Shown in pieces: positions 3,234 to 26,691 of a stretch of 32,000 nt of DNA. A model generated the notes under the pieces. That model saw only the letters and a list, made by a program, of their open reading frames with translations, searched no databases and was not told the DNA's origin. Source of the stretch: Alkalilimnicola ehrlichii MLHE-1. GTDB lineage: Bacteria; Pseudomonadota; Gammaproteobacteria; Nitrococcales; Halorhodospiraceae. A program made the translations under genes and the position numbers. Every line of letters begins with the position of its first letter. Position 1 is the first letter of the stretch. The stretch covers positions 780,001 to 812,000 of the forward strand of contig NC_008340.1 of the NCBI RefSeq assembly GCF_000014785.1, read 5' to 3'.

Positions 3234-3623
3234 ATGGATGCCAGCATGAAGGTGTCTACGCTGAATGTGCAGCCGCTTCGGCCCTCGGGGGGCAGCGAGA
3301 GCCAGGGGAAGGTCTCGCTCGCGCCCGCGGGGGCCGAGGCCGTTTCCGCCGCCCGCATGGGCGACGGTGCGGCCGAAACGGCCCGCCAGGCGGAAAAGGC
3401 CGCCGAGCAGGTGGGCCAGGCGGTGGATCGGATCAACGACTTCGTGCAGGTCGTCCAGCGCGATCTGGAGTTCAGCGTGCACGACGACACCGGTCGCACC
3501 GTGGTGCGGGTGTTTGACACCAACAGCGAGGAGTTGGTGCGCCAGTTCCCCGCCGACGAGATCCTGGCCCTGGCGGAGCAGTTGGATCGGGTCCGGGGGC
3601 TGCTGGTCAGCGATCAGGCCTGA
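3234..3623 (+). CDS. flaG: FlaG-family flagellar protein (copy 1)
   Basis: 129 aa. The C-terminal block VDRINDFVQVVQRDLEFSVHDDTGRTVVRVFDTNSEELVRQFPADEILALAEQL is typical of FlaG. A GGAGGAGGA Shine-Dalgarno precedes the ATG. Its position after fliC matches Pseudomonas. Confidence 0.85.
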   Translation: MDASMKVSTLNVQPLRPSGGSESQGKVSLAPAGAEAVSAARMGDGAAETARQAEKAAEQVGQAVDRINDFVQVVQRDLEFSVHDDTGRTVVRVFDTNSEELVRQFPADEILALAEQLDRVRGLLVSDQA

Positions 3624-3774: not shown

Positions 3775-4172
3775 TGCGACGCCCCCCACCGTCACTGCGA
3801 GGAGCGAAGCGACGTGGCAGTCCAAGGCCTATGGATCGCCGCGTCGCTTCGCTCCTCGCGATGACGGTGGGATGGGCCGCCCCAGTCACTGCGAGGAGGC
3901 GGAGCCGACGTGGCAGTCTACCGCTCTGGATCGCCACGGGCCTTTGGCCCTCGCGATGACGGGGGGTGCGCCCCCTGTCACTGCGAGGAGCGAAGCGACG
4001 CGGCAGTCTACCCCTCTGGATCGCCACGGGCCTTCGGCCCAGGCGATGACGGAGAGAAGGTCGGCGGCCCTCGCAATGACAGGGGAGATCGTTCGGCGCT
4101 CGCGATGACGGTCTGGCGCGGTGGTCCCCGCAATGACGGTGGGGCCCGGGTCCTCGCGACGTCGGGTCACTG
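3775..4172 (+). repeat. Repeat cluster A of the GTCACTGCGAGG/GTCATCGCGAGG palindromic family (forward orientation; 3 full units then degenerate short modules)
   Basis: Units start at 3791, 3885 and 3977 (spacing 94 and 92 bp). Each reads GTCACTGCGAGGAGCGAAGCGACG.GGCAGTCTACC..CTGGATCGCCACGGGCCTT.GGCCCTCGCGATGAC. The tail holds repeated ..CTCGC(G/A)ATGAC.. modules up to about 4172. Confidence 0.9.
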
Positions 4173-4225
4173 ATCGGTCTGACAATGGTGTTGCCGCGCC
4201 CCGCGGCGGTGGCAGGAGGCAGGAG

Positions 4226-4657
4226 ATGGATGGCAACAGCACTGTGACAACGCCGAACCTCGACGGGATCCGCGCAGCGGTCGCCCGTGGCCGGGAGGCG
4301 GTGTCGGGTGCCGGGGCGCGCCCGGCGACCGATGGCGCTGCGGCGCCGCGACCGGCCTCCGAGTCGGCGCCGGCCTCCGAGCCGGCCCGCGACCCGGCGC
4401 GGGCGGAGGACCCGCGGCGGGGCACCGACCCGACCGCCGAGGAGGTGGGCGAGGCGGTGGATCGCATCAACGAGTTCGTGCAACTGGTCCAGCGCGATCT
4501 GGAGTTCAGCATCGACGAGGATACGGGTCGGACGGTGGTCAAGGTGTTCGACTCGCAGAGCGAGGAGCTCGTCCGGCAGTTCCCGCCGGAGGAGATCCTG
4601 GCCATCGCCGAGCATTTAGAAGAGCTCAAGGGGCTGTTGGTCCGCGAGCAGGCGTAG
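4226..4657 (+). CDS. flaG: FlaG-family flagellar protein (copy 2, paralog)
   Basis: Track ORF 4121..4657 trimmed to the ATG at 4226. That ATG is preceded by GGCAGGAGGCAGGAG, and the upstream extension lies inside the repeat cluster. The C-terminal 73 aa match copy 1 at 53/73 positions (hand count): VDRINEFVQLVQRDLEFSIDEDTGRTVVKVFDSQSEELVRQFPPEEILAIAEHL. Confidence 0.8.
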   Translation: MDGNSTVTTPNLDGIRAAVARGREAVSGAGARPATDGAAAPRPASESAPASEPARDPARAEDPRRGTDPTAEEVGEAVDRINEFVQLVQRDLEFSIDEDTGRTVVKVFDSQSEELVRQFPPEEILAIAEHLEELKGLLVREQA

Positions 4658-6200: not shown

Positions 6201-6700
6201 CCCCGTGATCGCGAGGGCCGAAGGCTTTTTTCCCGTCATCGCGAGGGCCGGAGGCCCGTGGCGATCCAGGGCGGTAGACTGCCGCGTCGCTTCGCTCCTC
6301 GCAGTGACAGGGGGCGCACCCCCCGTCATCGCGAGGGCCGAAGGCCCGTGGCGATCCAGAGGGGTAGACTGCCACGTCGCTTCGCTCCTCGCAGTGACAG
6401 GGGGCGCACCCCCCGTCATCGCGAGGGCCGGAGGCCCGTGGCGATCCGGAGGGGTAGACTGCCGCGTCGCTTCGCTCCTCGCAGTGACAGGGGGCGCACC
6501 CCCCGTCATCGCGAGGGCCGGAGGCCCGTGGCGATCCGGAGGGGTAGACTGCCACGTCGCTTCGCTCCTCGCAGTGACAGGGGGCGCACCCCCCGTCATC
6601 GCGAGGGCCGGAGGCCCGTGGCGATCCAGGGCGGCAGACTGCCGCGTCGGCTTCGCCTCCTCGCAGTGACGGTGGGGTGTGGGGGCGTGCTCGCAGTGAC
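6201..6700 (-). repeat. Repeat cluster B: the same family in reverse orientation, as a near-perfect 90-bp tandem array (~5 units) plus flanking short modules
   Basis: Units begin at 6241, 6331, 6421, 6511 and 6601, exactly 90 bp apart. Each reads GCGAGGGCCG(G/A)AGGCCCGTGGCGATCC(AGGGC/AGAGG/GGAGG)GGTAGACTGCC(G/A)CGTCGCTTCGCTCCTCGCAGTGACAGGGGGCGCACCCCCCGTCATC. Only about 5 positions vary among the first four units. Confidence 0.95.
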
Positions 6701-6759
6701 TGGGGAGGGCATGTGGCCCTGTCCCGGGGGAGCGGGGCACTGGTGCCGAAACACCACTA

Positions 6760-11395: not shown

Positions 11396-13138
11396 ATGGC
11401 TGAGGCAAGCCAGGCATTGACGGAGAGTGAGGGCGGCGGCCGCGCCATCGCCGAGCGCGGTAGTGCGGGGCGCACCGGTGCGGGCACCGCCGGTCGCATT
11501 CCGGGCATGGACCAATTGGAGGGCCTCTTCGGCGGCCGGCAGAACGTGATGCGCCTGGGGCTGGCGGTGGTGCTACTGTTCACCGTGGCCGCCGGGGTGT
11601 TGCTGTACCTCTGGGCGCAGGAGCCCAGCTACCGCACCCTGTTCAGCGAGCTGGACGATCAGGACGCCGCCGCCGTCATCGAGCAGTTGGAGGAGCAGGG
11701 CATCCCCTACCGCCTGGATGAGCGTACGGGAGCCGTGCGGGTGCCCTCGGATCAGGTCCACCCGGCCCGGCTGCAGTTGGCCGCCGAGGGGCTGCCCCGG
11801 GGCACCGGCTTTGGTTTCGAGATGCTGCAGGAGGACTCCGCCTTCGGCACCAGTGAGTTCATGGAAGGGGCCCGGTTCGACCGCGCCCTGGAGACCGAAC
11901 TGGCCCGTTCCATCGGCACCCTGCGCCAGGTGGACGCCGCCCGCGTCCACCTGGCCCTGCCCCGCGAGTCGGTCTTCGTCCGCGACCGCCGGCAGCCGAG
12001 GGCCTCGGTGGTGGTCAACCTGGCTCAGGGCCGGCGGCTGAACGATGAGCAGGTGGACGCCATCGTCCACATGGTGGCCAGCAGCGTGCCGGATTTGGCC
12101 CACGAGAACGTGAGCGTGGTGGATGAGCGCGGCCGCCTGCTCACCCGCGACGAGGGCCGCGGGCTGGCCAGCACCGCCGGTCAGTTCCAGTACAAGACCC
12201 AGGTGGAAGAGACCTACGTCCGTCGTATCGAGGACCTGCTGGCGCCCCTCGTTGGCCGCAACCGGGTCCGGGCCCAGGTCAACGCCAGCCTGGACTTCTC
12301 CGAGCAGCAGCGCACCGAGGAGCTCTACGACCCGGACAGCCGGGTGATCCGCAGCGAGGCCCTGCAGGGCCGCCGCACCCAGCAGGGGGCCGACGCGGCC
12401 ATGGGCGTGCCCGGCGCGCTCACCAACCAGCCCCCGGGGGCCGGGCAGTTGGACGGCGAGGAGGCGCCGGAGAACCCGCCGCCGGTGGACATCAGCTCCT
12501 CCGAGACCCGCAACTACGAGATCAGCCGCACCCTGCGCCAGGTCCGCGACCCCATCGGCAGCATCCAGCGGGTGTCGGTGGCGGTGGTGGTGGACGAGCG
12601 CATCACCACCGACGAGGAGGGCAACACAGTGCGCGAACCGTTGTCGGACGAGGAGATGGACCGTATCAACGCCCTGGTGCAGGAAGCCGTGGGCTTCGAT
12701 GCCGCGCGCGGTGACAGCGTCAATGTGGTCAACGCCGCCTTCTTGGAAGAGGAGCCGGTGGAGGCGATGCCGCCGGTGCCGCTGCTGGAGCGCGAGTGGG
12801 TCCGCGAGCTGATCCGCTTTGCCATTGCCGCATTGGCCTTCATCGCCCTGCTGCTGTTCGTGGTGCGGCCGATGATCAAGGGCATGCAGCGTCAGCGCGA
12901 CCAGGCGCTGCGCGCGCCTGCCTCGGAGGAGCAGGCACGCCTGGCCCAGCAGGGCGGTGGCGGGGGCGCGGCGCAGCTCGCCGGGCCGGACGCCAACGAA
13001 CAGGCACTGCTGGCGGGCGTTCAGCACAAGCCCTACGAGGCCAAACTGGAGGCCGCCAAGAAGCTGGTGAATGACGAGCCGGAGCTGGCGGCGAACGTGA
13101 TCAAGTCCTGGCTGGCGGAAGACGATGGCAAACGATAG
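11396..13138 (+). CDS. fliF: flagellar M-ring protein FliF
   Basis: 580 aa. It has an N-terminal TM segment (LGLAVVLLFTVAAGVLLYLW), then the YscJ/FliF domain (YRTLFSELDDQDAAAVIEQLEEQGIPYRL), and a C-terminal TM segment. Confidence 0.95.
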   Translation: MAEASQALTESEGGGRAIAERGSAGRTGAGTAGRIPGMDQLEGLFGGRQNVMRLGLAVVLLFTVAAGVLLYLWAQEPSYRTLFSELDDQDAAAVIEQLEEQGIPYRLDERTGAVRVPSDQVHPARLQLAAEGLPRGTGFGFEMLQEDSAFGTSEFMEGARFDRALETELARSIGTLRQVDAARVHLALPRESVFVRDRRQPRASVVVNLAQGRRLNDEQVDAIVHMVASSVPDLAHENVSVVDERGRLLTRDEGRGLASTAGQFQYKTQVEETYVRRIEDLLAPLVGRNRVRAQVNASLDFSEQQRTEELYDPDSRVIRSEALQGRRTQQGADAAMGVPGALTNQPPGAGQLDGEEAPENPPPVDISSSETRNYEISRTLRQVRDPIGSIQRVSVAVVVDERITTDEEGNTVREPLSDEEMDRINALVQEAVGFDAARGDSVNVVNAAFLEEEPVEAMPPVPLLEREWVRELIRFAIAALAFIALLLFVVRPMIKGMQRQRDQALRAPASEEQARLAQQGGGGGAAQLAGPDANEQALLAGVQHKPYEAKLEAAKKLVNDEPELAANVIKSWLAEDDGKR

Positions 13139-15042: not shown

Positions 15043-16411
15043 GGCCAAGGCCCCGCCCCGCAGCAATCGCTGGGCCGAGCATCTGCGTCGGCGCCGGCAG
15101 CGGGTGCGTGCCCCGCGGTTGGTGGTGGAAGGCGTGTTGCGCCGTATGGTCGGCCTGACCCTCGAGGCCGAGGGCTGCCAGGCGCCACTGGGCAGCCGCT
15201 GCACCCTGCGCACCCAGCAGGACCGGGATGTGGAGGCCGAGGTGGTCGGCTTTGCCGGCGACAAGCTCTACCTGATGCCCACCGGCGAGCTGCACGGCAT
15301 GATGCCCAACGCCCGGGTGGTGCCCCGGGGCGGCACCGCCGAGGCCGGTATGGGCCCGGGGCTGCTGGGCCGGGTGCTGGATGGCGGTGGTCGCCCGCTG
15401 GATGGTAAGGGCCTGCTGGATCACAGCGAATACCGCAGCCTGGTGGGCGAGGGCATCAACCCCCTGGCCCGCGCCCCCATCAAGGCGCCGCTGGACGTGG
15501 GCGTGCGCGCCATCAACAGCCTGTTCACCGTGGGGCGCGGCCAGCGCATGGGACTGTTCGCCGGCTCCGGCGTGGGCAAGAGCGTGCTGCTGGGCATGAT
15601 GACCCGCTACACCAACGCCGATGTGGTGGTAGTGGGGCTGATCGGCGAGCGGGGCCGGGAGGTCAAGGAGTTCATCACCGACATTTTGGGTGACGAGGGG
15701 CTGGCCCGGTCCGTGGTGGTGGCCTCACCGGCGGACAAATCCCCGCTCATGCGCCTGCACGGGGCCATGTTGGCCACCAGTATCGCCGAGTACTTCCGCG
15801 ACCAGGGCCTGAATGTGTTGCTGCTGATGGACTCGCTCACCCGCTACGCCCAGGCCCAGCGCGAGATCGGCCTGGCCATCGGTGAGCCGCCCACCACCAA
15901 GGGCTATCCGCCGTCCGTGTTCGCGCTGCTGCCGCGGTTGGTGGAGCGGGCCGGCAACGGGCCGGACGACGGCGGCTCGATCACCGCCTTCTACACCGTG
16001 CTCACCGAGGGCGACGATCAGCAGGACCCCATCGCCGATGCCGCCCGCGCCATCCTTGATGGTCACCTGGTGCTGTCGCGCCAGCTGGCCGACGCCGGCC
16101 ACTACCCGGCCATCGATATCGAGGCCTCGGTGAGCCGGGCCATGATCAACATCACCGAGCGGGGCCACCAGCGCCTGGCGCAGCGCTTCCGCCAGCTCTG
16201 GTCCACCTACCGGGAGAACCAGGACCTGATCAGCGTCGGGGCCTACCAGAAGGGCAGCGACCCGCGGGTGGACGAGGCCATTGCCATCATGCCGCGGCTG
16301 CGCGCCTTCCTGCAGCAGGATGTCTCCACGGCGGTGAACTTTGGCGAAAGCCTGGAGCAGCTCTTCGGATTGCTCAGCGATCAGGCCCAGACCGGGGGCG
16401 GCAATGGCTGA
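15035..16411 (+). CDS. fliI: flagellum-specific ATPase FliI
   Basis: Track ORF 14831..16411 trimmed to the ATG at 15035, which overlaps the fliH stop (ATGAGTGA). Walker [43 protein letters not shown], and the Walker B region. Confidence 0.95.
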
Positions 16412-16472
16412 CAGGGTGAATTGTCGGAGTCATAATAAGGGTTAAGTCGGCGCCCGCCGACGGGGAGGCGAG

Positions 16473-16919
16473 ATGAACCGTTCCGCACGCCTGCAACCGG
16501 TGCAACGCCTGGCCGGCGACAAGGCCGACGAGGCCGGCCAGCGCCTGGCCGAGGCCCGTCAGGATCTCGACAGCCAGCGCCAGCAGCTGCGCCAACTGTT
16601 GACCTTCCGCCAGGAGTACGCCGAGCAGTTGCAGGGACAGAGCGGGGGCATCAACGCCGCGCGCCTGCGCGACTACAATGCCTTCATATCCCGCATCGAT
16701 CAGGCCATCCAACAGCAGCACCAGGTGGTGGCTCAGGCCAAACGCCGGGTGAACGCGCAGCGCCAGGACTGGCTCGAGGCCTACAGCCATTCCCGGGCGG
16801 TGGGCCGGGTGGTGGACCGCTTCCGCGACGAGGAGCGCCGCGAGCAGGAGCGGCGCGAGCAGTTGCAACTGGACGAACTGGCCCGGCGCACCTACAGCAA
16901 CCCGCTACTCGGCTCCTGA
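16473..16919 (+). CDS. fliJ: flagellar export chaperone FliJ
   Basis: 148 aa coiled-coil. LQPVQRLAGDKADEAGQRLAEARQDLDSQRQQLRQLLTFRQEY. Synteny follows fliI. Confidence 0.85.
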   Translation: MNRSARLQPVQRLAGDKADEAGQRLAEARQDLDSQRQQLRQLLTFRQEYAEQLQGQSGGINAARLRDYNAFISRIDQAIQQQHQVVAQAKRRVNAQRQDWLEAYSHSRAVGRVVDRFRDEERREQERREQLQLDELARRTYSNPLLGS

Positions 16920-16938
16920 GCCGGAACAAAGGCCTTAG

Positions 16939-17330
16939 GGATCGCCACGTCGCTGCGCTCCTCTTGAAGAACTTGACTGTGCCGGCAGCGGAAGGTCGCC
17001 CCCACCGTCACTGCGAGGAGGCGAAGCCGACGCGGCAGTCTACCGCCCTGGATCGCCACGGGCCTTCGGCCCTCGCGATGACGGGGGGAGGGGCCACCCC
17101 GTCACTGCGAGGAGGCGAAGCCGACGCGGCAGTCTACCGCCCTGGATCGCCACGGGCCTTCGGCCCTCGCGATGACGGGGGGAGGGGCCACCCCGTCACT
17201 GCGAGGAGCGAAGCGACGCGGCAGTCTACCCCTCTGGATCGCCACGGGCCTTCGGCCCTCGCGATGACGGGGAGGAGGTGGCGGCCCTCGCGATGACGGG
17301 GGAAAGCCTTCGGCCCTGGCGATGCCAGGG
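16939..17330 (+). repeat. Repeat cluster C (forward orientation; 3 units at 94-bp spacing plus a head module and short tail modules)
   Basis: Units start at 17007, 17101 and 17195. The first two carry the GAGGAGGCGAAGCCGACG variant and the third GAGGAGCGAAGCGACG. The tail modules are GGCCCTCGCGATGACGGGG. Confidence 0.9.
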
Positions 17331-17415
17331 ATGCCCCGTTCCTCGTTGATTCGGGCCCGCGTAGCGAGGAGTGGGGCTCACGATGACGCGTGCGCCGTCC
17401 CCGGGTAGACGGCAT

Positions 17416-17431
17416 TGGCCCCGATATTGCT
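17416..17431 (+). promoter_or_regulatory. sigma54-type promoter candidate for fliK
   Basis: TGGCCCCGATATTGCT, with correct GG-N10-GC spacing and a TTGCT -12 element. It lies 73 nt upstream of the fliK start. Confidence 0.55.
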
Positions 17432-17503
17432 TTTCTTCCCGTAACGGACAATACCGGCAACCACGCCGGTCCACCACGGTACTGAGACTGGAGAGCACCC
17501 ACC

Positions 17504-18631
17504 GTGACCACACCTGTCGACATGCCGCGGGCCGAACCGGCGGCGGGCCCGCCTGATCTGCTGCAGATTCTGCTGGATCAGGCCGCCGAGGGCGACGGCG
17601 AGTTCATAGACGCGCTGCTGGCAACGGACGCCTTTGGTGACCTGGACAAGGCCGAGGCCAAGACCCTGTTGGAGGATCCGGACCGGCTGGCCGGGTGGGC
17701 CGAGGAGTTGCCGGAGGGTGGCAAACTGCTGCCGCTGGTGTTGGCGGCCCTGGCGGAAAAGCAGGCCGATGGCGAGGCCCTGGAGGCGCGCAGCGGTCGG
17801 GGTGCCGAGGCACGGCGGGCCGGTGAGATACCAGCACTGCCGCTTTGGGCCCTGCACGATCTGATCCCCCGGGACGAGGACCCGGCGGAGTTGCTGAACC
17901 TGCTGCAGACCACCGGGCGCATGCTGGACCCGGTGGGGGCCGGCGAGGGGTTGCGCGACGCGGTGGCCGATGCCATGAAGGGGCGCACGGCGACCAGCAC
18001 CGAGCGGGCCGAGGCCCTGCTGCAGCAGACCCTGGCCCAGGAGAAGGGCGAGCGTGAAGGCGAAGGGCGAAACCCGGCCCAGCCGCAGGCCCAGGCCCGT
18101 GCCGATGCAGGCATCGGTTTCTCCGGGTTGCTGGCGGCGGGTGAGTCCAACGGCACCTCCCGGCCCGGTGCCCAGCCGATTCAACAGGCACTGCCCGGTT
18201 TCCAGCTCGCCACCCCGGCCAATCAGCCGGGCTTTGGCCGGGCGCTGGGTGAGCGCATGGTGATGATGATCCAGCAGCAGATCCAGCAGGCGCGTATTCG
18301 CCTGGATCCGCCGGGGCTGGGCCCGCTGGACATCAATATCGCTACCCAGGATGAGCGCACCACCATCCAGATAACCGCCCAGCAGGCTAGTGCCCGCGAG
18401 GCAGTCGAGTCCGAACTGCCGCGGCTGCGCCAGATGCTCGCCGAGCAGGGGCAGGGCGAGGTGGACGTGGATGTCTCGGAGCGTCAGGACGAGGGCTTCT
18501 GGGCGCAGGGCCAGGCGGCCGGGCTGTTAAATGCCGGCGGCCCGGGTGACCCCGAGGCCGGTGACGGGGCAGCGGCCGACGCCCCGGCGCAACGGCTGCA
18601 ACCACAGGGCCTCGTCGACCATTACGCCTGA
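17504..18631 (+). CDS. fliK: flagellar hook-length control protein FliK
   Basis: 375 aa with a GTG start (GGAGAG upstream; an alternative ATG is at 17522). It has a low-complexity Ala/Glu/Pro-rich N-terminal half and a C-terminal Flg_hook domain IRLDPPGLGPLDINIATQDERTTIQITAQQASAREAVESELPRLRQMLAEQG. Confidence 0.82.
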   Translation: MTTPVDMPRAEPAAGPPDLLQILLDQAAEGDGEFIDALLATDAFGDLDKAEAKTLLEDPDRLAGWAEELPEGGKLLPLVLAALAEKQADGEALEARSGRGAEARRAGEIPALPLWALHDLIPRDEDPAELLNLLQTTGRMLDPVGAGEGLRDAVADAMKGRTATSTERAEALLQQTLAQEKGEREGEGRNPAQPQAQARADAGIGFSGLLAAGESNGTSRPGAQPIQQALPGFQLATPANQPGFGRALGERMVMMIQQQIQQARIRLDPPGLGPLDINIATQDERTTIQITAQQASAREAVESELPRLRQMLAEQGQGEVDVDVSERQDEGFWAQGQAAGLLNAGGPGDPEAGDGAAADAPAQRLQPQGLVDHYA

Positions 18632-18642
18632 CGCGCCCCGCC

Positions 18643-18866
18643 GTCACTGCGAGGAGCGAAGGGGCGCGGCAGTCCAAGCCGGGGTGTGGATCGCCGCGTC
18701 GCTGCGCTCCTCGCGATGACGGGGGTGGTGTCTCCCCCGCCGTCGGCGTGGTGCCTCCCCTCCCCCACCGTCACTGCGAGGAGGCGAAGCCGACGCGGCA
18801 GTCTACCGCTCTGGATCGCCACGGGCCTGCGGCCCTCGCGATGATGGGGGGAAGCCTTCGGCCCCT
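18643..18866 (+). repeat. Repeat cluster D (forward orientation; one long-palindrome unit and one standard unit)
   Basis: Units start at 18643 (GTCACTGCGAGGAGCGAAGGGGCGCGGCAGTCCAAG...GGATCGCCGCGTCGCTGCGCTCCTCGCGATGAC) and at 18770 (GTCACTGCGAGGAGGCGAAGCCGACGCGGCAGTCTACCGCTCTGGATCGCCACGGGCCTGCGGCCCTCGCGATGAT). The cluster begins 12 nt after the fliK stop. Confidence 0.88.
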
Positions 18867-18877
18867 GTCCTGCGCCG

Positions 18878-18905
18878 CTTGAACTCCCGCGCCTTGCCCC
18901 AATCT
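18878..18905 (+). promoter_or_regulatory. sigma32 (heat-shock)-like promoter candidate for htpX
   Basis: CTTGAAC(18878-18884)-N12-CCCCAATCT(18897-18905) against the E. coli consensus CTTGAA-N13-17-CCCCATNT. htpX is heat-shock-regulated in E. coli. Motif match only. Confidence 0.4.
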
Positions 18906-18995
18906 AAGCCCTAGGATAATTTGAACGGCCGCTCCGGCACCCCCCTCGCCGGAGTGCGGTTTGGGCTGCTTACATAACCGGGAGATCAAGCGACG

Positions 18996-19901
18996 ATGAA
19001 GCGCATAGGGCTCTTTCTGCTCACTAACCTGGCGATCCTGGTGGTCCTGGGTGTGGTGTTGTTCATCCTGCAGGCCGTGTTCGGGGTGCGGACCCTGGAT
19101 GAGGCCGGTGTGGGTCTGGACTATACGGGGTTGCTCATCATCGCCGCGGTGATCGGTTTCGGCGGCTCGTTCATCTCCCTGGCCATGTCCAAGTTCATCG
19201 CCAAGCGGATGACCGGGGCCCGCGTTATCGAAAAGCCGCGCAGCGAGGCCGAGCAGTGGCTGGTGGATACCGTGCGCCGCTTTGCCCGCCAGGAGGGCAT
19301 CGGTATGCCGGAGGTGGCGATCTACGACGCCCCGGACATGAACGCCTTTGCCACCGGGGCCCGGCGCAATAACTCCCTGGTGGCGGTGAGCACCGGCCTG
19401 CTGCAGAGCATGACCCGGGACGAGGCCGAGGCGGTGATCGGCCACGAGATCGCCCACATCAGCAACGGCGATATGGTCACCCTGACCCTGATCCAGGGGG
19501 TGGTGAACACCTTTGTGGTCTTCTTCTCGCGCATCATCGGCCATTTCGTCGACCGCGTGGTATTCAAGACCGAGCAAGGGCACGGCCCGGCCTATTTCAT
19601 CACCTCCATCTTCGCCCAGATCGTGCTGGGCATCCTCGCCTCGGTGATCGTCATGTGGTTCTCCCGTCAGCGGGAGTACCGGGCCGATGCCGGTGGCGCC
19701 AAGCTGGCCGGGCGCGACAAGATGATAGCCGCGCTGGAGCGGCTAAAGCGCTCGGTGGACCAGGAGCACCTGCCGGACCAGCTGGAGGCCTTCGGCATCA
19801 ACGGCAACCGCGGTGGCGGCATGAAGGAGTGGTTCATGTCCCACCCGCCGCTGGACGACCGCATCGCCGCGCTGAAGGAGGGCCGTCACCTGCGCGGATG
19901 A
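18996..19901 (+). CDS. htpX: membrane zinc metalloprotease HtpX (M48 family)
   Basis: 301 aa. N-terminal TM segments, HEXXH as [12 protein letters not shown], and a C-terminal [11 protein letters not shown]. Confidence 0.95.
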
Positions 19902-25339: not shown

Positions 25340-25342
25340 ACC

Positions 25343-25905
25343 ATTGCGAGGGCCAAAGGCTTTCCCCCGTCATCGCGAGGGCCAAAGGCTTTCCCCCGTC
25401 ATCGCGAGGGCCGAAGGCTTTCCCCCCGTCATCGCGAGGGCCGAAGGCCCGTGGCGATCCAGAGGGGTAGACTGCCACGTCGCTTCGCTCCTCGCAGTGA
25501 CGATGGAGGTGGGTCCGCAGTGACGGTGGGGGCGACTTGCCGCTTCCGGTACAGTCCAGTTCTTCAAGAGGGCCGCCGCCTCCTCCCCGTCATCGCGAGG
25601 GCCGAAGGCCCGTGGCGATCCAGAGGGGTAGACTGCCACGTCGGCTTCGCCTCCTCGCAGTGACGGTGGGGGTGGGCCTCCTCGCAGTGACGGTGGGGGG
25701 TGCCCCTTCCCGCAGTTACGGTGGGGGTGCCCCTTCCCGCAGTGACGGTGGGGACGGCACCACCCCCGTCATCGCGAGGAGCGCAGCGACGCGGCGATCC
25801 AGACGCCCGCCTGGACTGCCACGCCCCCGCCGGGGGGTCGCCGTGAAGGTGGGGTTGGGCCGCGCTCGTAGTGGCGGTAGGGACGGCACCACCCCCGCGA
25901 TGCCG
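25343..25905 (-). repeat. Repeat cluster E (mostly reverse orientation; mosaic of short tandem modules, two standard units, a head module and a partial long-palindrome arm)
   Basis: It contains three copies of (C)GTCATCGCGAGGGCC(A/G)AAGGCTTTCCCC at 25343-25440. Standard units lie at about 25425-25500 and 25587-25672. Four copies of (CCT)CGCAGT(G/T)ACGGTGGGG.. lie at about 25650-25755. GTCATCGCGAGGAGCGCAGCGACGCGGCGATCCAG lies at about 25767-25803. The cluster fills the gap between convergent scpB and the small minus-strand ORF. Confidence 0.9.
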
Positions 25906-25913
25906 GTGAGGAT

Positions 25914-26084
25914 TTAAATCCGGATCTTGTAGGTACCGGTGGCGCTGCGGATGATCACTTCGCCTTGGTAGCCGTACAGCTCCGCAACCTGGCGTGCCAC
26001 CCGCAGTGCGCCGGGCTCGGACTTCGCGCTGGCCAGGTGCTTCACATGCCCGTGGGCGTCGTAATAACTGATTTCCCAGCCCAT
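25914..26084 (-). CDS. small hypothetical protein (56 aa), possibly DUF2188-like
   Basis: This is the C-terminal half of track ORF 25914..26231(-), from the internal ATG at 26084. MGWEISYYDAHGHVKHLASAKSEPGALRVARQVAELYGYQGEVIIRSATGTYKIRI uses GC-ending codons like the rest of the genome. The upstream 49 codons are rich in A/T-ending codons and cover the sufR promoter region. The pattern GW.v....g......f.....A...A...A...g.e..i....G resembles DUF2188 (from memory; not verified). Confidence 0.45.
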   Translation of the reverse strand: MGWEISYYDAHGHVKHLASAKSEPGALRVARQVAELYGYQGEVIIRSATGTYKIRI

Positions 26085-26229
26085 GCGGTGCTGCACCAGT
26101 TCGATCACGGGACAGGGAAAGGGTCTGCGACGGGCCTGCAAGGTGTGATCTCCTCTATCGCCTGGATAGGAATTGGAATAACTCAAAGAGTACCAATCTG
26201 GTCCGGTATCCGTTACAATCCAGACCATC

Positions 26230-26691
26230 ATGGTACGGATTAACAGAGAAACCGACTACGGCATAGGCATCCTGACGGCCATGGCGCGGGCGCCGGAGCA
26301 GCGTTTCAGCACCGTCCGCCTCGCTGATCAGCAGGGCCTGCCGCAGCCTATGGTGGCCAAGATCCTCAAGAATCTGGCCCGCGCGGGGATTCTCGTCTCC
26401 TACCGTGGCGCCAAGGGCGGCTATGGGCTGGCGCGTCCCGCCCGTCAGATCTCGGTGGCCGAGATCATTACCGCCCTTGAGGGGCCCATTGCCTTCACCG
26501 AGTGTGTGGAGGAGGGCGTGGATGCCTGCCAGTACGGCGATGCCTGCACCACCAGTGCCAACTGGTGGCGGATCAGCCAGGTGGTGCAGCATGCCCTGGG
26601 CAGCATCAGCCTGAAGGACATGAGCGAGCCGGTGGTGCCGTTGCGCATGATGGCGCCCCGGGCCGGCTCCCTCAAGGGGGATGCTTCGTGA
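26230..26691 (+). CDS. Rrf2-family Fe-S-binding transcriptional regulator of the SUF operon (IscR/SufR-like)
   Basis: 153 aa. It has an N-terminal winged HTH (INRETDYGIGILTAMA ... LPQPMVAKILKNLARAGILVSYRGAKGGYGLAR) and the Cys triad C-x7-C-x5-C (TECVEEGVDACQYGDAC). It lies immediately upstream of sufBCDS, as in the Xanthomonas-type suf regulator. Confidence 0.85.
   Translation: MVRINRETDYGIGILTAMARAPEQRFSTVRLADQQGLPQPMVAKILKNLARAGILVSYRGAKGGYGLARPARQISVAEIITALEGPIAFTECVEEGVDACQYGDACTTSANWWRISQVVQHALGSISLKDMSEPVVPLRMMAPRAGSLKGDAS

Follow-up and report, generated by a model that had tools for sequence, protein, structure and literature searches.

The five intergenic clusters (A-E) in the window, a 32,000-nt stretch of Alkalilimnicola ehrlichii MLHE-1 that was analysed as a whole, are probably arrays of a hairpin element that acts as single-stranded DNA (ssDNA): a two-tier variant of NTS/SRM, the sites of small GIY-YIG ssDNA nucleases, within the CGTC-tagged REP superfamily. 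A covariance model located 31 element copies in these clusters, and the pattern GTCAYYGCGAGGN{6,16}CGYGGCRRTC matched the window 29 times with 0 matches expected. The 94-nt "unit" turned out to be a pair of homologous 32-34-nt hairpins in opposite orientation, with conservation confined to roughly 36 nt and nothing beyond. Each element starts with (C/T)GTC, which is unpaired, and continues with a basal stem of 5 bp, an asymmetric GA/GYG internal loop that is fixed, and an upper helix free in sequence and length and usually capped by the DNA mini-hairpin C-GNA-G; an unpaired C follows the stem. In the mechanism that we favour, a protein would recognise, on one strand, the sequence of the flanks and of the lower stem, and a helix would be the sole requirement for the upper part, so that a G...C pair may be gained or lost and the loop may change freely. 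X and Y types are placed in alternating orientation, and the arrays would grow or shrink through duplication or loss of whole 90-198-nt units.

An initial annotation of this DNA had proposed that the unit variants of cluster C differ by one G-C pair around a GAA loop, and the sequences at 17007, 17101 and 17195 agreed with it. X-long (GTCACTGCGAGGAGGCGAAGCCGACGCGGCAGTC, 17007-17040 and 17101-17134) had one more G 5' and one more C 3' of CGAAG than X-short (GTCACTGCGAGGAGCGAAGCGACGCGGCAGTC, 17195-17226), and the one-sided variants GAGGAGGCGAAGCGACG and GAGGAGCGAAGCCGACG had 0 occurrences in the whole window. However, the dashed parse first given for these variants counted one G twice, and the literal GAGGAGGGCGAAGCCGACG was absent; the correct parse is GAGGA-GGCGAAGCC-GACG versus GAGGA-GCGAAGC-GACG. 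Both variants were also located, as had been claimed, in clusters A (3790, 3884, 3976), B (four short copies and 6634), D (18642, with a degenerate 3' arm, and 18769) and E (25467, 25628). The second hairpin, GGGCC-TTC-GGCCC at 4028, 17060, 17154 and 17246, had been described as an invariant stem with a varying loop. In the window this hairpin did vary only in its loop, with the TGC loop exactly at 18823-18835, but the TTT loop lay at 3938-3950 and not at 3941-3953. The GAA and GGA loops of this hairpin were found in clusters B and E, on the opposite strand. The loops differ on the + strand only through the inversion of the second hairpin: from its own CGTC end, every copy had a loop of GAA, GGA, GCA or AAA. 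Taking all elements together, the stem was not strictly invariant: copy 18642 had a broken top, copy 4016 had GAG changed to CTG, and a sister strain carried GGGCCTTCAGCCC. The G-run/C-run pair, regarded earlier as a third element, was indeed self-complementary but was not independent: it was the head-to-head junction of two elements, each with a C-rich 5' flank, and was thus self-complementary by construction.

In cluster C, 16938-16963 (- strand) was the 3' part (tail to ...CTCCTC) of a W hairpin element that was split by an insertion and whose GGGATCGCCACGTCGCTGCGCTCCTC aligned with intact W copies. At 16964-17005 (+ strand) a remnant resembling an IS110-family end (TTGAAGAACTTGACTGT...) preceded a C-run; the remnant matched the end of a 1641-bp IS in L121 at 14 of 17 nt, and CTCTTGAWGAACTTRACT occurred twice in the window against 0.01 expected. 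Six hairpin elements came next, all of them covariance-model matches. The first was an X-long element at 17006-17043 (+ strand; 58 bits, E 1e-12) with a CGTC tag, an ACTGC/GCAGT base, a GA/GCG internal loop, a G.A/A.G shoulder and a GGC-GAA-GCC top, followed by a Y element at 17048-17083 (- strand; 44.7 bits) with a CGTC tag, an ATCGC/GCGAT base and a GGGCC-GAA-GGCCC top. Another X-long (17100-17137, + strand, 58 bits) and another Y (17142-17177, - strand, 44.7 bits) followed, and then an X-short (17194-17229, + strand, 43.9 bits) whose GC-GAA-GC top had one G-C pair less, at the site of which strain GCA_049200435.1 had an X-long unit with the other linker instead. After the third Y element (17234-17269, - strand, 44.7 bits), truncated Y "heads" formed tandem repeats of about 29 nt at 17270-17330 (Tandem Repeats Finder: 17248-17331, period 29, 2.9 copies). 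The other IS110-family end-like remnant, at 17331-17376 (+ strand), matched the final 48 nt of the L121 IS at 41 of 48 nt, and directly after it CTCACGATGACGCG marked the 5' part of the split W element (CGCGTCATCGTGAG; 17377-17390, - strand).

The two end-like sequences (16964-17005 and 17331-17376) thus bracketed the array and split W at CCTC^GCGATGAC, a site which in a sister strain held an intact IS110-family element, and elements of this family are known to target REPs (PMC1525189, PMC11208160). It could be argued that a miniature IS110-family derivative has cluster C as its cargo or interior, and that the location of the cluster between fliJ and fliK came from IS110-type insertion and not from hairpin biology. 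We consider this highly improbable, as clusters A, B and D were without such ends and E had only one end-like copy (25553-25570, - strand), the same arrays were found elsewhere without IS remnants, and the proposal accounts at most for the location of one cluster and not for the unit structure.

The other clusters were built from the same parts. Cluster A (3790-4110), between the two flaG copies, contained an X, a W, an X-long with a GGA loop, a Y with an AAA loop, another X, one degenerate Y and some partial heads, and in a sister strain an IS110-family element was inserted in it at 3857/3858. Cluster B (6205-6703), after fliD, contained five 90-nt Y/X units and partial heads, with one unit fewer in the sister strain. 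Cluster D (18642-18846), directly after the fliK stop codon, contained X (broken top) with W, and X-long with Y (GCA loop, CATC tag), whilst cluster E (25342-25848), after scpB, was made up of two Y/X pairs, a W whose partner was degenerate, and truncated heads in repeats of 29 nt and 27 nt. Clusters C, D and E were missing from the sister species Alkalispirillum mobile (3/3 comparable clusters), D being missing from the orthologous spacer. Near-identical strains (99.7%) showed the one-unit difference in cluster B and, at a site downstream of the window, 12 versus 4 copies. The relatives L248 and L249 had an element dimer of their own between sufB and sufC. The clusters are lineage-specific, unstable insertions; they do not form a conserved regulatory component of the flagellar operon.

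X-long was usually found with the linker CGCC and X-short usually with the linker CCCT, and the compensated indel therefore goes back to one or a few old events which were copied many times. The evidence from the window alone is for this reason weaker than it appears. In an extreme form of this argument, nothing is selected in this genome, and the compensated difference is a single event that hitch-hiked via tandem duplication and gene conversion. The linker association and the many identical copies are in line with it, as are the differences of whole units between strains and the uncompensated variants (ATCAC, GCGTGG), which were also amplified by unit duplication within one array. However, A. 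ehrlichii alone had five upper helices and three basal stems, all paired; disrupting changes were found in single copies or in one array, whereas paired variants were spread across many clusters; and the covariation in the whole family (see next) was overwhelming. We regard the absence of selection as quite unlikely.

Public genome, viral and metagenome collections (the last for the ACTGC type only) were scanned for the element, and the matches listed, which are arbitrary samples, give a lower bound on its abundance and taxonomic spread. The family consensus was yGTC-AYYGC-GA-[variable helix, mostly GNA-capped]-GYG-GCRRT-C, with a base conserved in sequence and a top that covaried strongly. 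The element was 30-40 nt long, its stem having 5 bp, the internal loop and then 3-7 bp, with loops of mostly 3 nt; in the shortest natural form, GTCATTGCGAG-CGNAG-CGYGGCAATC, GCGNAGC sits directly on the internal loop. Among 141 distinct copies the lower half (GTC, the first as well as the last pair of the stem, the internal loop GA/GYG and the trailing C) was at least 97% conserved across phyla, which contradicts the part of the initial annotation that denied a role to primary sequence. G2, T3 and C4 were each at least 99% conserved in the 141 external copies, and 30 of the 31 window copies had [C/T/A]GTC, the remaining one having CATC. The trailing C (C65) was present in 141/141 covariance-model-aligned copies and in all window copies; it was required by the exact-pattern scans and not by the covariance-model search. 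The first stem pair was A-T in every copy and the second was T-A in Y and W and C-G in X, with tails of CCAG in Y and CTAC in X. The basal stem alternated between ATTGC/GCAAT, ATCGC/GCGAT, ACTGC/GCAGT and ATTCC/GGAAT.

The proposal that folding is selected was supported by the upper stems and by the switching of the basal stem. Of the 314 distinct upper stems that came from three independent collections, 243 were perfectly paired despite differing in sequence and length (2-7 bp), and a one-sided bulge was needed in only 23. Nine of 12 pairs showed changes on both sides in the 141 distinct copies, and none of 500 shuffles reached the observed values; when the partner columns were slid in the same copies, pairing fell to 22-63%. 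Furthermore, the Watson-Crick fraction was 0.717 versus 0.468 in chimera controls (z = 15), and a gap-free seed alignment was 91% paired, which 0/500 shuffles equalled.

As the medium of folding, RNA and single-stranded or cruciform DNA had been left side by side; our results favoured ssDNA, with a DNA-type cap and a strand asymmetry, and RNA is unlikely. Among distinct upper stems of triloop-permitting length, the cap C-GNA-G was found in 39 of 79 (genome) and 24 of 72 (viral), and the complementary C-TNC-G in 2 and 1 of the same sets, respectively. The mini-hairpin d(GCGAAGC) melts at 76.5 C and the RNA r(GCGAAAGC) at 39 C (PMC13037366). This d(GCGNAGC) hairpin (Hirao and co-workers; PMC13037366) has in common with our element the commonest upper-helix cap, C-GNA-G on a G-C pair, but it is a structural motif and not a genetic element, and many copies here had other caps (AAA, tetraloops, and CTT/CTC in phage contigs).

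Energy calculations gave a mixed result for the folding that had been expected of single units. The Y hairpin at 17048-17083 had a z-score of -2.2 as DNA and -2.5 as RNA, but the X hairpin was no better than shuffled sequence in nearest-neighbour energy (z 0.3-0.8 as DNA). The stability of mini-hairpins is known to escape nearest-neighbour models, and single X hairpins probably received no thermodynamic support because the energy model had no terms for mini-hairpins and tandem G.A pairs. In the array, long X:Y hairpins were favoured in the minimum-energy fold.

Could the elements still act as RNA in flagellar transcripts, where RNA folding would be selected in 3'-end stabilisers, processing sites or attenuators like the E. 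coli REPs in mRNA? The clusters lie just past stop codons and between same-direction genes, RNA folding of the array scored well (z -4.5, -4.2), and at one pair G:C alternates with G:U (55 vs 82 copies), which RNA tolerates. It was also argued that many REPs are transcribed (Di Nocera et al., PMC3733652). However, we found both element orientations, in alternation, inside one transcription unit, and orientation relative to genes was unbiased in genomes (33 sense, 26 antisense), with 15 sense and 45 antisense in phage contigs; for these counts spurious ORFs reading through the repeats were masked and the gene calls were crude. The sequence asymmetry (CGTC tag, GNA caps) tracked the element and not the mRNA strand, and a GNA triloop closed by a C-G pair confers stability specifically on DNA. 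There were 0 intrinsic terminators (GC-rich hairpin and T-run) in 16400-19100 and 0 matches to Rfam 15 in the window at the gathering threshold; a permissive Rfam search of 16920-17420 gave chance-level matches (E >= 0.4), with weak Acido-1 matches on the head-to-head junction hairpin. Moreover, the sister species has the same operon without the clusters, and Ssn does not bind RNA (PMC11893778). A role as RNA is thus less likely than one as ssDNA, given both orientations per transcript, no gene-orientation bias in genomes, the DNA-type cap and an enzyme family that binds ssDNA only, and we hold it to be improbable. By eye, the consensus features of a K-turn, RNase III site, integron attC, CRISPR repeat, ToxI-like array or hammerhead were absent or not conserved in the family.

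Among repeats already described, the CGTC-tagged REPs (Di Nocera, De Gregorio & Rocco 2013, BMC Genomics, PMC3733652) were similar to our element in the unpaired CGTC/TGTC tag, the A-T stem start and, for Y, the short CCA-like tail (CCAG). A-T pairs at both of the first two stem positions are typical of these REPs, and X departed from this at the second position (C-G) and in its tail (CTAC). They also form inverted dimers, are intergenic, mostly downstream of genes, and have no transposase nearby. However, their four families, CGTC-1 to -4, are simple hairpins with an 8-9-bp stem and a 4-5-nt loop, which was not the case here. The peptides given for them (VIPAKAGI, VIAGLDPAIH, VIPWLDHGI) differ from the VIARSEATWQS type that our element would encode, which was not present in the supplement of PMC3733652, and clusters were called rare there but were the rule here. 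The strains analysed in that study did not include A. ehrlichii. A literature search with the literal repeat sequences returned unrelated primers alone.

The E. coli REP/BIME and Pseudomonas REPIN with RAYT (TnpA_REP) are likewise short imperfect palindromes with an unpaired tetranucleotide tag, which occur as two types in alternating orientation and in tandem mosaics, are targets of IS110-family elements, and form ssDNA hairpins recognised by a small nuclease whose gene they flank. They differ in having the tag GTAG and not CGTC, an HUH/Y1 transposase and not a GIY-YIG enzyme, and species-specific sequences. A classical REP/BIME or REPIN mobilised by a REP-associated tyrosine transposase (RAYT) would fit the BIME-like architecture of the clusters, with two alternating types, fixed linkers and tandem arrays; it would also fit the complement of the X tail, which reads GTAG beside the palindrome (GGTAGACTGCC), and the minimum-energy fold of the array, which consists of long REPIN-like hairpins. 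GTAG REPs have been reported in Thioalkalivibrio. However, classical REPs have GTAG/GTGG 5' of the palindrome, whereas GTAG was confined here to the complement of the X tail; Y has CTGG and not GTAG, the tails in the wider family are C(C/T)N, and the conserved unpaired tag GTC is at the opposite end. RAYT-linked REPs are species-specific, whereas the base of this element was nearly identical across phyla and phages. A tblastn search with E. coli RayT gave no convincing homologue in the 2.86 Mb around 360 loci, and the CGTC repeats of Di Nocera et al. were without an adjoining transposase (PMC3733652). We therefore judge a RAYT origin very unlikely.

The link to a GIY-YIG nuclease came from the neighbourhood of the element in other genomes. 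In the 2.86 Mb around the 360 loci, 12 of 14 single-domain GIY-YIG ORFs (~95 aa) were located 24-173 nt from the motif (2.1 expected, P about 1e-9), and the genes that adjoined it had covariance-model matches on both flanks. Neighbour clustering of 120 genome loci alone gave no enriched family, and the GIY-YIG signal appeared after 360 loci were pooled and ORFs through the motif excluded. The neighbouring proteins (94-96 aa) contained Pfam PF01541 alone and showed weak similarity to UPF0213 structures (E 0.017), and a homologue in L127 was flanked by canonical Neisseria-type NTS. We regard them as putative members of the Ssn family (cd10448), whose proteins have one GIY-YIG domain of about 94 aa and are distinct from UPF0213/YhbQ, on the grounds of their size, their possession of a single GIY-YIG domain, the hairpins on their flanks and this NTS-flanked homologue; the Ssn homologue search listed the best 120 of 4,697 matches. 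In the 32-kb window itself hmmsearch found no Ssn-like or GIY-YIG ORF, and an Ssn-type enzyme that would act on the A. ehrlichii copies is putative.

Several properties of Ssn match the anatomy of the element. Ssn binds and cuts its hairpin as ssDNA only and on the forward strand only; cleavage depends on 3 nt upstream of the palindrome and binding on the C after it, whilst the loop is not needed and extra pairs are tolerated at the loop end of the stem (PMC11893778). The element shares with NTS/SRM (Chenal et al. 2025, Nat Commun, PMC11893778) the unpaired (C/T)GTC directly 5' of the hairpin, the A-T stem start and the unpaired C right after the stem, then C/T and A, as well as strict orientation, multiple copies and ~95-aa single-domain GIY-YIG genes flanked on both sides; its freely varying loop and distal stem match the reported tolerance of Ssn. 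It differs in its two-tier stem (5 bp, conserved GA/GYG internal loop, variable helix), as opposed to a continuous 8-9-bp stem, in its length of 30-40 nt and, in the window, in forming BIME-like alternating arrays of two types without an ssn gene. It also falls outside the published SRM string, HGTCWYN(0-2)YYVSBRHN(0-5)WNVSBRGN(0-2)RNCYNB, which had 0 matches in the window and failed on X-short, X-long, Y and the 30-nt minimal form, while the NTS control passed. For the host, the element may limit recombination of incoming ssDNA as in Neisseria, or there may be mere propagation of the element.

The compensated changes are what would be predicted for a hairpin element of this known kind; the base of the variant, however, was near-invariant across phyla and phages and yet lay outside the only published SRM search pattern, so existing surveys, whether of Ssn targets or of "REPs without a transposase", are probably incomplete. 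The chances seem about even that the two-tier element (GTC-AYYGC-GA-[free helix]-GYG-GCRRT-C) represents a distinct and very widespread Ssn-type specificity class, missed by the published SRM consensus and spread over CPR bacteria, Chloroflexi, Proteobacteria and many phage contigs, with recognition split between a sequence-read base with its fixed internal loop and an extendable helix. With such a class, a large share of CGTC-type REPs would gain the "dedicated enzyme" that has long been missing, and certain lineages, A. ehrlichii among them, would have seen the element expand into BIME-like arrays that are also insertion hot spots of IS110-family elements. The upper helices found in nature, with their many sequences and lengths of 2-7 bp, amount to a ready mutational scan of what an Ssn-type enzyme must read, which is relevant to the use of these enzymes as programmable ssDNA cutters.

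The 90-94-nt 'unit' of the initial annotation is not one element: it is a pair of homologous, imperfectly palindromic sequences, each 32-34 nt long, facing in opposite directions. Read from its own 5' end, the element has the order (C/T)GTC - A-YY-GC - GA - G(upper helix, loop)C - GYG - GC-RR-T - C - tail. A covariance-model search based on this structure, for which E-values are rough, gave 31 good copies in the window, and a generalised element pattern matched 29 times there vs 0 expected. The copies differ in their base (lower stem) and top (upper helix and loop). X-long (6 copies) and X-short (9 copies) share the base ACTGC/GCAGT and a tandem G.A/A.G shoulder, followed by GGC-GNA-GCC in the former and GC-GNA-GC in the latter; W (3 copies) and Y (13 copies) have the base ATCGC/GCGAT, with an X-type top in W and GGGCC-GNA-GGCCC in Y. 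Every loop of the window copies is GAA, GGA, GCA or AAA in its own orientation. In the hairpin GGGCC/GGCCC variation was indeed confined to the loop (TTC, TTT, TGC; GAA and GGA on the opposite strand), with the TTT copy starting at 3938 instead of 3941; the TTC and TGC loops were reported because Y elements had been read from the wrong strand. What had been taken for a third, G-run/C-run element is the junction of two head-to-head elements, self-complementary by construction since each carries a preceding C-run.

In cluster C, one of the five intergenic arrays (A-E), 17007-17040 and 17101-17134 read GTCACTGCGAGGAGGCGAAGCCGACGCGGCAGTC and 17195-17226 reads GTCACTGCGAGGAGCGAAGCGACGCGGCAGTC. The sole internal difference is one G on the 5' side and one C on the 3' side of CGAAG, the compensated 2-nt indel that had been described, and both length variants are also present in clusters A, B, D and E. 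The dashed parse of these units had counted one G twice, and the literal GGG-containing string is absent. Neither one-sided variant, G alone or C alone, was found in the window.

The window evidence is a handful of independent events only. X-long and X-short mostly have different linkers, and the unpaired variants ATCAC and GCGTGG were multiplied by duplication of a 198-nt unit in a 12-copy array of one strain. Since unpaired variants are also amplified, recurrence within arrays is no evidence of selection; the evidence for selection is the dispersal of paired variants together with the family-wide data. The exact element pattern occurred at no fewer than 120 loci in a species-representative genome collection and at least 120 in IMG/VR viral contigs, and a narrower pattern, with the ACTGC base only, at at least 120 in JGI metagenomes; counts from these three public collections rest on the matches listed. 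The genome matches listed came from Chloroflexi, Firmicutes, Bacteroidota, Planctomycetota, Nitrospirota, CPR groups and all proteobacterial classes, and no conservation was seen in the flanks outside the element. Among 104 distinct genome tops of the matches listed, the Watson-Crick fraction of the upper helix was 0.717 vs 0.468 +/- 0.016 in same-length chimeras (z = 15). A gap-free 26-sequence alignment was 91% paired, which was equalled by 0 of 500 shuffles. In 141 distinct copies two-sided changes occurred at 9 of 12 pairs (151 cells), and pairing fell to 22-63% when partner columns were slid; this alignment was fitted to the model, and unbiased control is provided by the alignment-free comparison and by the gap-free seed. 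The basal stem varies as ATTGC/GCAAT, ATCGC/GCGAT, ACTGC/GCAGT and ATTCC/GGAAT. The matches listed in the three collections comprise 314 distinct tops, of which 243 were perfectly paired with a helix of 2-7 bp, 23 need a one-sided bulge, 35 have one mismatch and 13 have more than one. Uncompensated changes were thus not as frequent as compensated ones, contrary to the condition that the initial annotation had named as refuting. Selection for folding of the hairpin elements is supported, both by this covariation and by the dispersed paired variants, and pure hitch-hiking with no selection in the A. ehrlichii genome is improbable. However, the further proposal that primary sequence does not matter is wrong for the lower half, where the base is nearly invariant (G2 T3 C4 A5, G10 A11 G12, C56 G57 Y58 G59 and C65 at >=97% in the 141 model-aligned copies). 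In phage or prophage contigs of IMG/VR (L152, 2670-2856; also L135, L164, L204, L219 and L226) the motif forms tandem direct arrays with a period of ~42-54 nt. All copies there share a strand, which is mostly the antisense one relative to the genes, and they lie a short distance upstream of ribosome-binding sites of the opposite strand.

The cap C-GNA-G was carried by 39 of 79 genome and 24 of 72 viral distinct tops of triloop-permitting length among the matches listed, whereas the complementary cap C-TNC-G was nearly missing from the same tops (2 genome, 1 viral). Because of this dominance, one strand of the element is the functional strand. It is not tied to transcription: sense and antisense orientations to genes, from crude gene calls on the matches listed, were 33:26 in genomes and 15:45 in phage contigs (per-locus P 0.06). 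C-GNA-G on a G-C pair is the known mini-hairpin of DNA; melting temperatures are 76.5 C for d(GCGAAGC) and 39 C for the RNA r(GCGAAAGC), a stability beyond the reach of standard energy models (PMC13037366). Action of the elements as RNA is therefore less likely, given both the cap and the independence from transcription. Nearest-neighbour folding, proposed as a check, bore out the Y elements (z ~ -2.2 to -2.5); X elements scored no better than shuffled sequences, consistent with energy models missing the mini-hairpin. The minimum-energy fold of the whole array favoured long X:Y hairpins (z -4.5 as RNA, -3.2 as DNA), a pairing that is automatic because the elements are homologous and inverted. 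Local hairpins fit better, since the added G and C pair with each other only in a local hairpin, other genomes often have single copies and paired elements are mostly unequal in length.

When ORFs near the motif were pooled over 360 loci, one neighbour family recurred, single-domain GIY-YIG proteins of ~95 aa. When every ORF in 2.86 Mb, called with a home-made procedure, was searched with a profile, 14 GIY-YIG ORFs were recovered, and 12 of them lay 24-173 nt from an exact motif vs 2.1 expected (P ~1e-9). The motif-linked ORFs had covariance-model matches on both flanks, and a thirteenth, at locus L127, was flanked by the canonical CGTCATTCCCGCGCAGGCGGGAATCCAG. Chenal et al. (2025; PMC11893778) reported NTS/SRM hairpins on the flanks of the genes for Ssn nucleases, which are GIY-YIG proteins (cd10448); these loci have the same architecture, and the proteins beside the motif are putative cd10448 members. 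SsnA of N. meningitidis binds and cuts its hairpin as ssDNA only, on the forward strand only; the loop is dispensable, the stem can be extended at the loop end, and sequence and structure are both required (PMC11893778). The conservation pattern of the element corresponds one-to-one with these requirements, and such recognition explains why the top can gain or lose a G-C pair and the base stays fixed. The element shares with NTS/SRM the tag, trailing C, orientation and gene association, though the published degenerate search string gave 0 matches for it; by analogy, it would work like NTS/SRM. No Ssn-type ORF was found in the 32-kb window, and we infer that an enzyme of this type acts on the A. 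ehrlichii copies. The CGTC REPs of Di Nocera share the CGTC tag and lack of a transposase, but the element falls outside all four of their simple-hairpin families. The complement of the X tail, e.g. at 17037-17043 (complement GGTAGACTGCC), places GTAG beside the palindrome, so that X resembles a GTAG-type REP on the opposite strand; Y has CTGG there. The GTAG may be coincidence or dual recognition. A REP/BIME of the RAYT type (REP-associated tyrosine transposase) would account for it, yet Y lacks GTAG, no convincing RayT homologue lay near any of the 360 loci and the element, unlike RAYT REPs, is conserved across phyla, which leaves this origin very improbable.

The window, whose FliS, SufB and FliG are exact matches to A. 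ehrlichii MLHE-1, has its genes arranged as fliC-flaG-[A]-flaG'-fliD-[B]-fliS-fliT-fleQ-...-fliJ-[C]-fliK-[D]-M48 peptidase ... scpA-scpB-[E]-Rrf2-sufBCDS. Every cluster falls between genes, those of C and D beginning directly after stop codons. Alkalispirillum mobile and a metagenomic relative (L246) have no copy in the fliJ-fliK, fliK-M48 and scpB-Rrf2 spacers (91, 121 and 311 nt). An Alkalispirillum relative (L248, L249) carries an inverted element dimer at 11497-11584 between sufB and sufC; this dimer, which A. mobile and A. ehrlichii lack at that position, was gained independently at a different site. Among A. ehrlichii strains with 99.6-99.9% identity to the window, cluster B varies by a single 90-nt unit, cluster C in which type its third unit has, and cluster A in an IS110-family insertion; at one site ~9 kb downstream of the window two strains have 12 copies (L372, 20042-20613) and 4 copies (L373, 20012-20187). 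Given the copy-free spacers of the sister species and the differences between strains, the clusters are recent and unstable insertions and do not belong to any conserved flagellar regulation. The 12-copy array consists of duplicates of a 198-nt double unit, and an IS21-type IstB gene follows it.

In strain GCA_049200435.1 a 1641-bp IS110-family element with a DEDD transposase (L121, 5478-7118) lies inside a W element at ...GCTCCTC^GCGATGAC; MLHE-1 has the empty site at 3857/3858. Remnants like both ends of this IS (16964-17005, 17331-17376) bracket cluster C and split one W element (16938-16963 and 17377-17390), so that the array stands between IS-end-like sequences. A further copy of one end, 25553-25570(-), is joined in cluster E to CCCTC of a truncated head. 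These junctions suggest repeated IS110-type targeting of the conserved head. An IS110-derived miniature element with the array as cargo would match the bracketing but concerns cluster C only, and is very improbable.

At the cluster edges (25342-25448, 25656-25753, 17248-17331 and 6649-6703) truncated 'heads' repeat in tandem every 27-29 nt; they read CCCGTCATCGCGAGGGCCRAAGGCTTTCC, or CTCGCAGTGACGG plus a G/C hairpin, their basal stem is missing its 3' half, and they appear to be by-products of the turnover of arrays. Cluster A lies between tandem FlaG-domain genes (3234-3623 and 4121-4657; 80% identity over 220 nt, repeat family D8); the repeats may have mediated this duplication or may simply accompany it. 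A small minus-strand ORF between scpB and the Rrf2 regulator gene (window 25914-26231(-); L247 9146-9373(-)), with no Pfam match, is called at an equivalent location (75 aa) both in A. mobile and in two A. ehrlichii strains, and cluster E lies between the stop codons of scpB and of this ORF.
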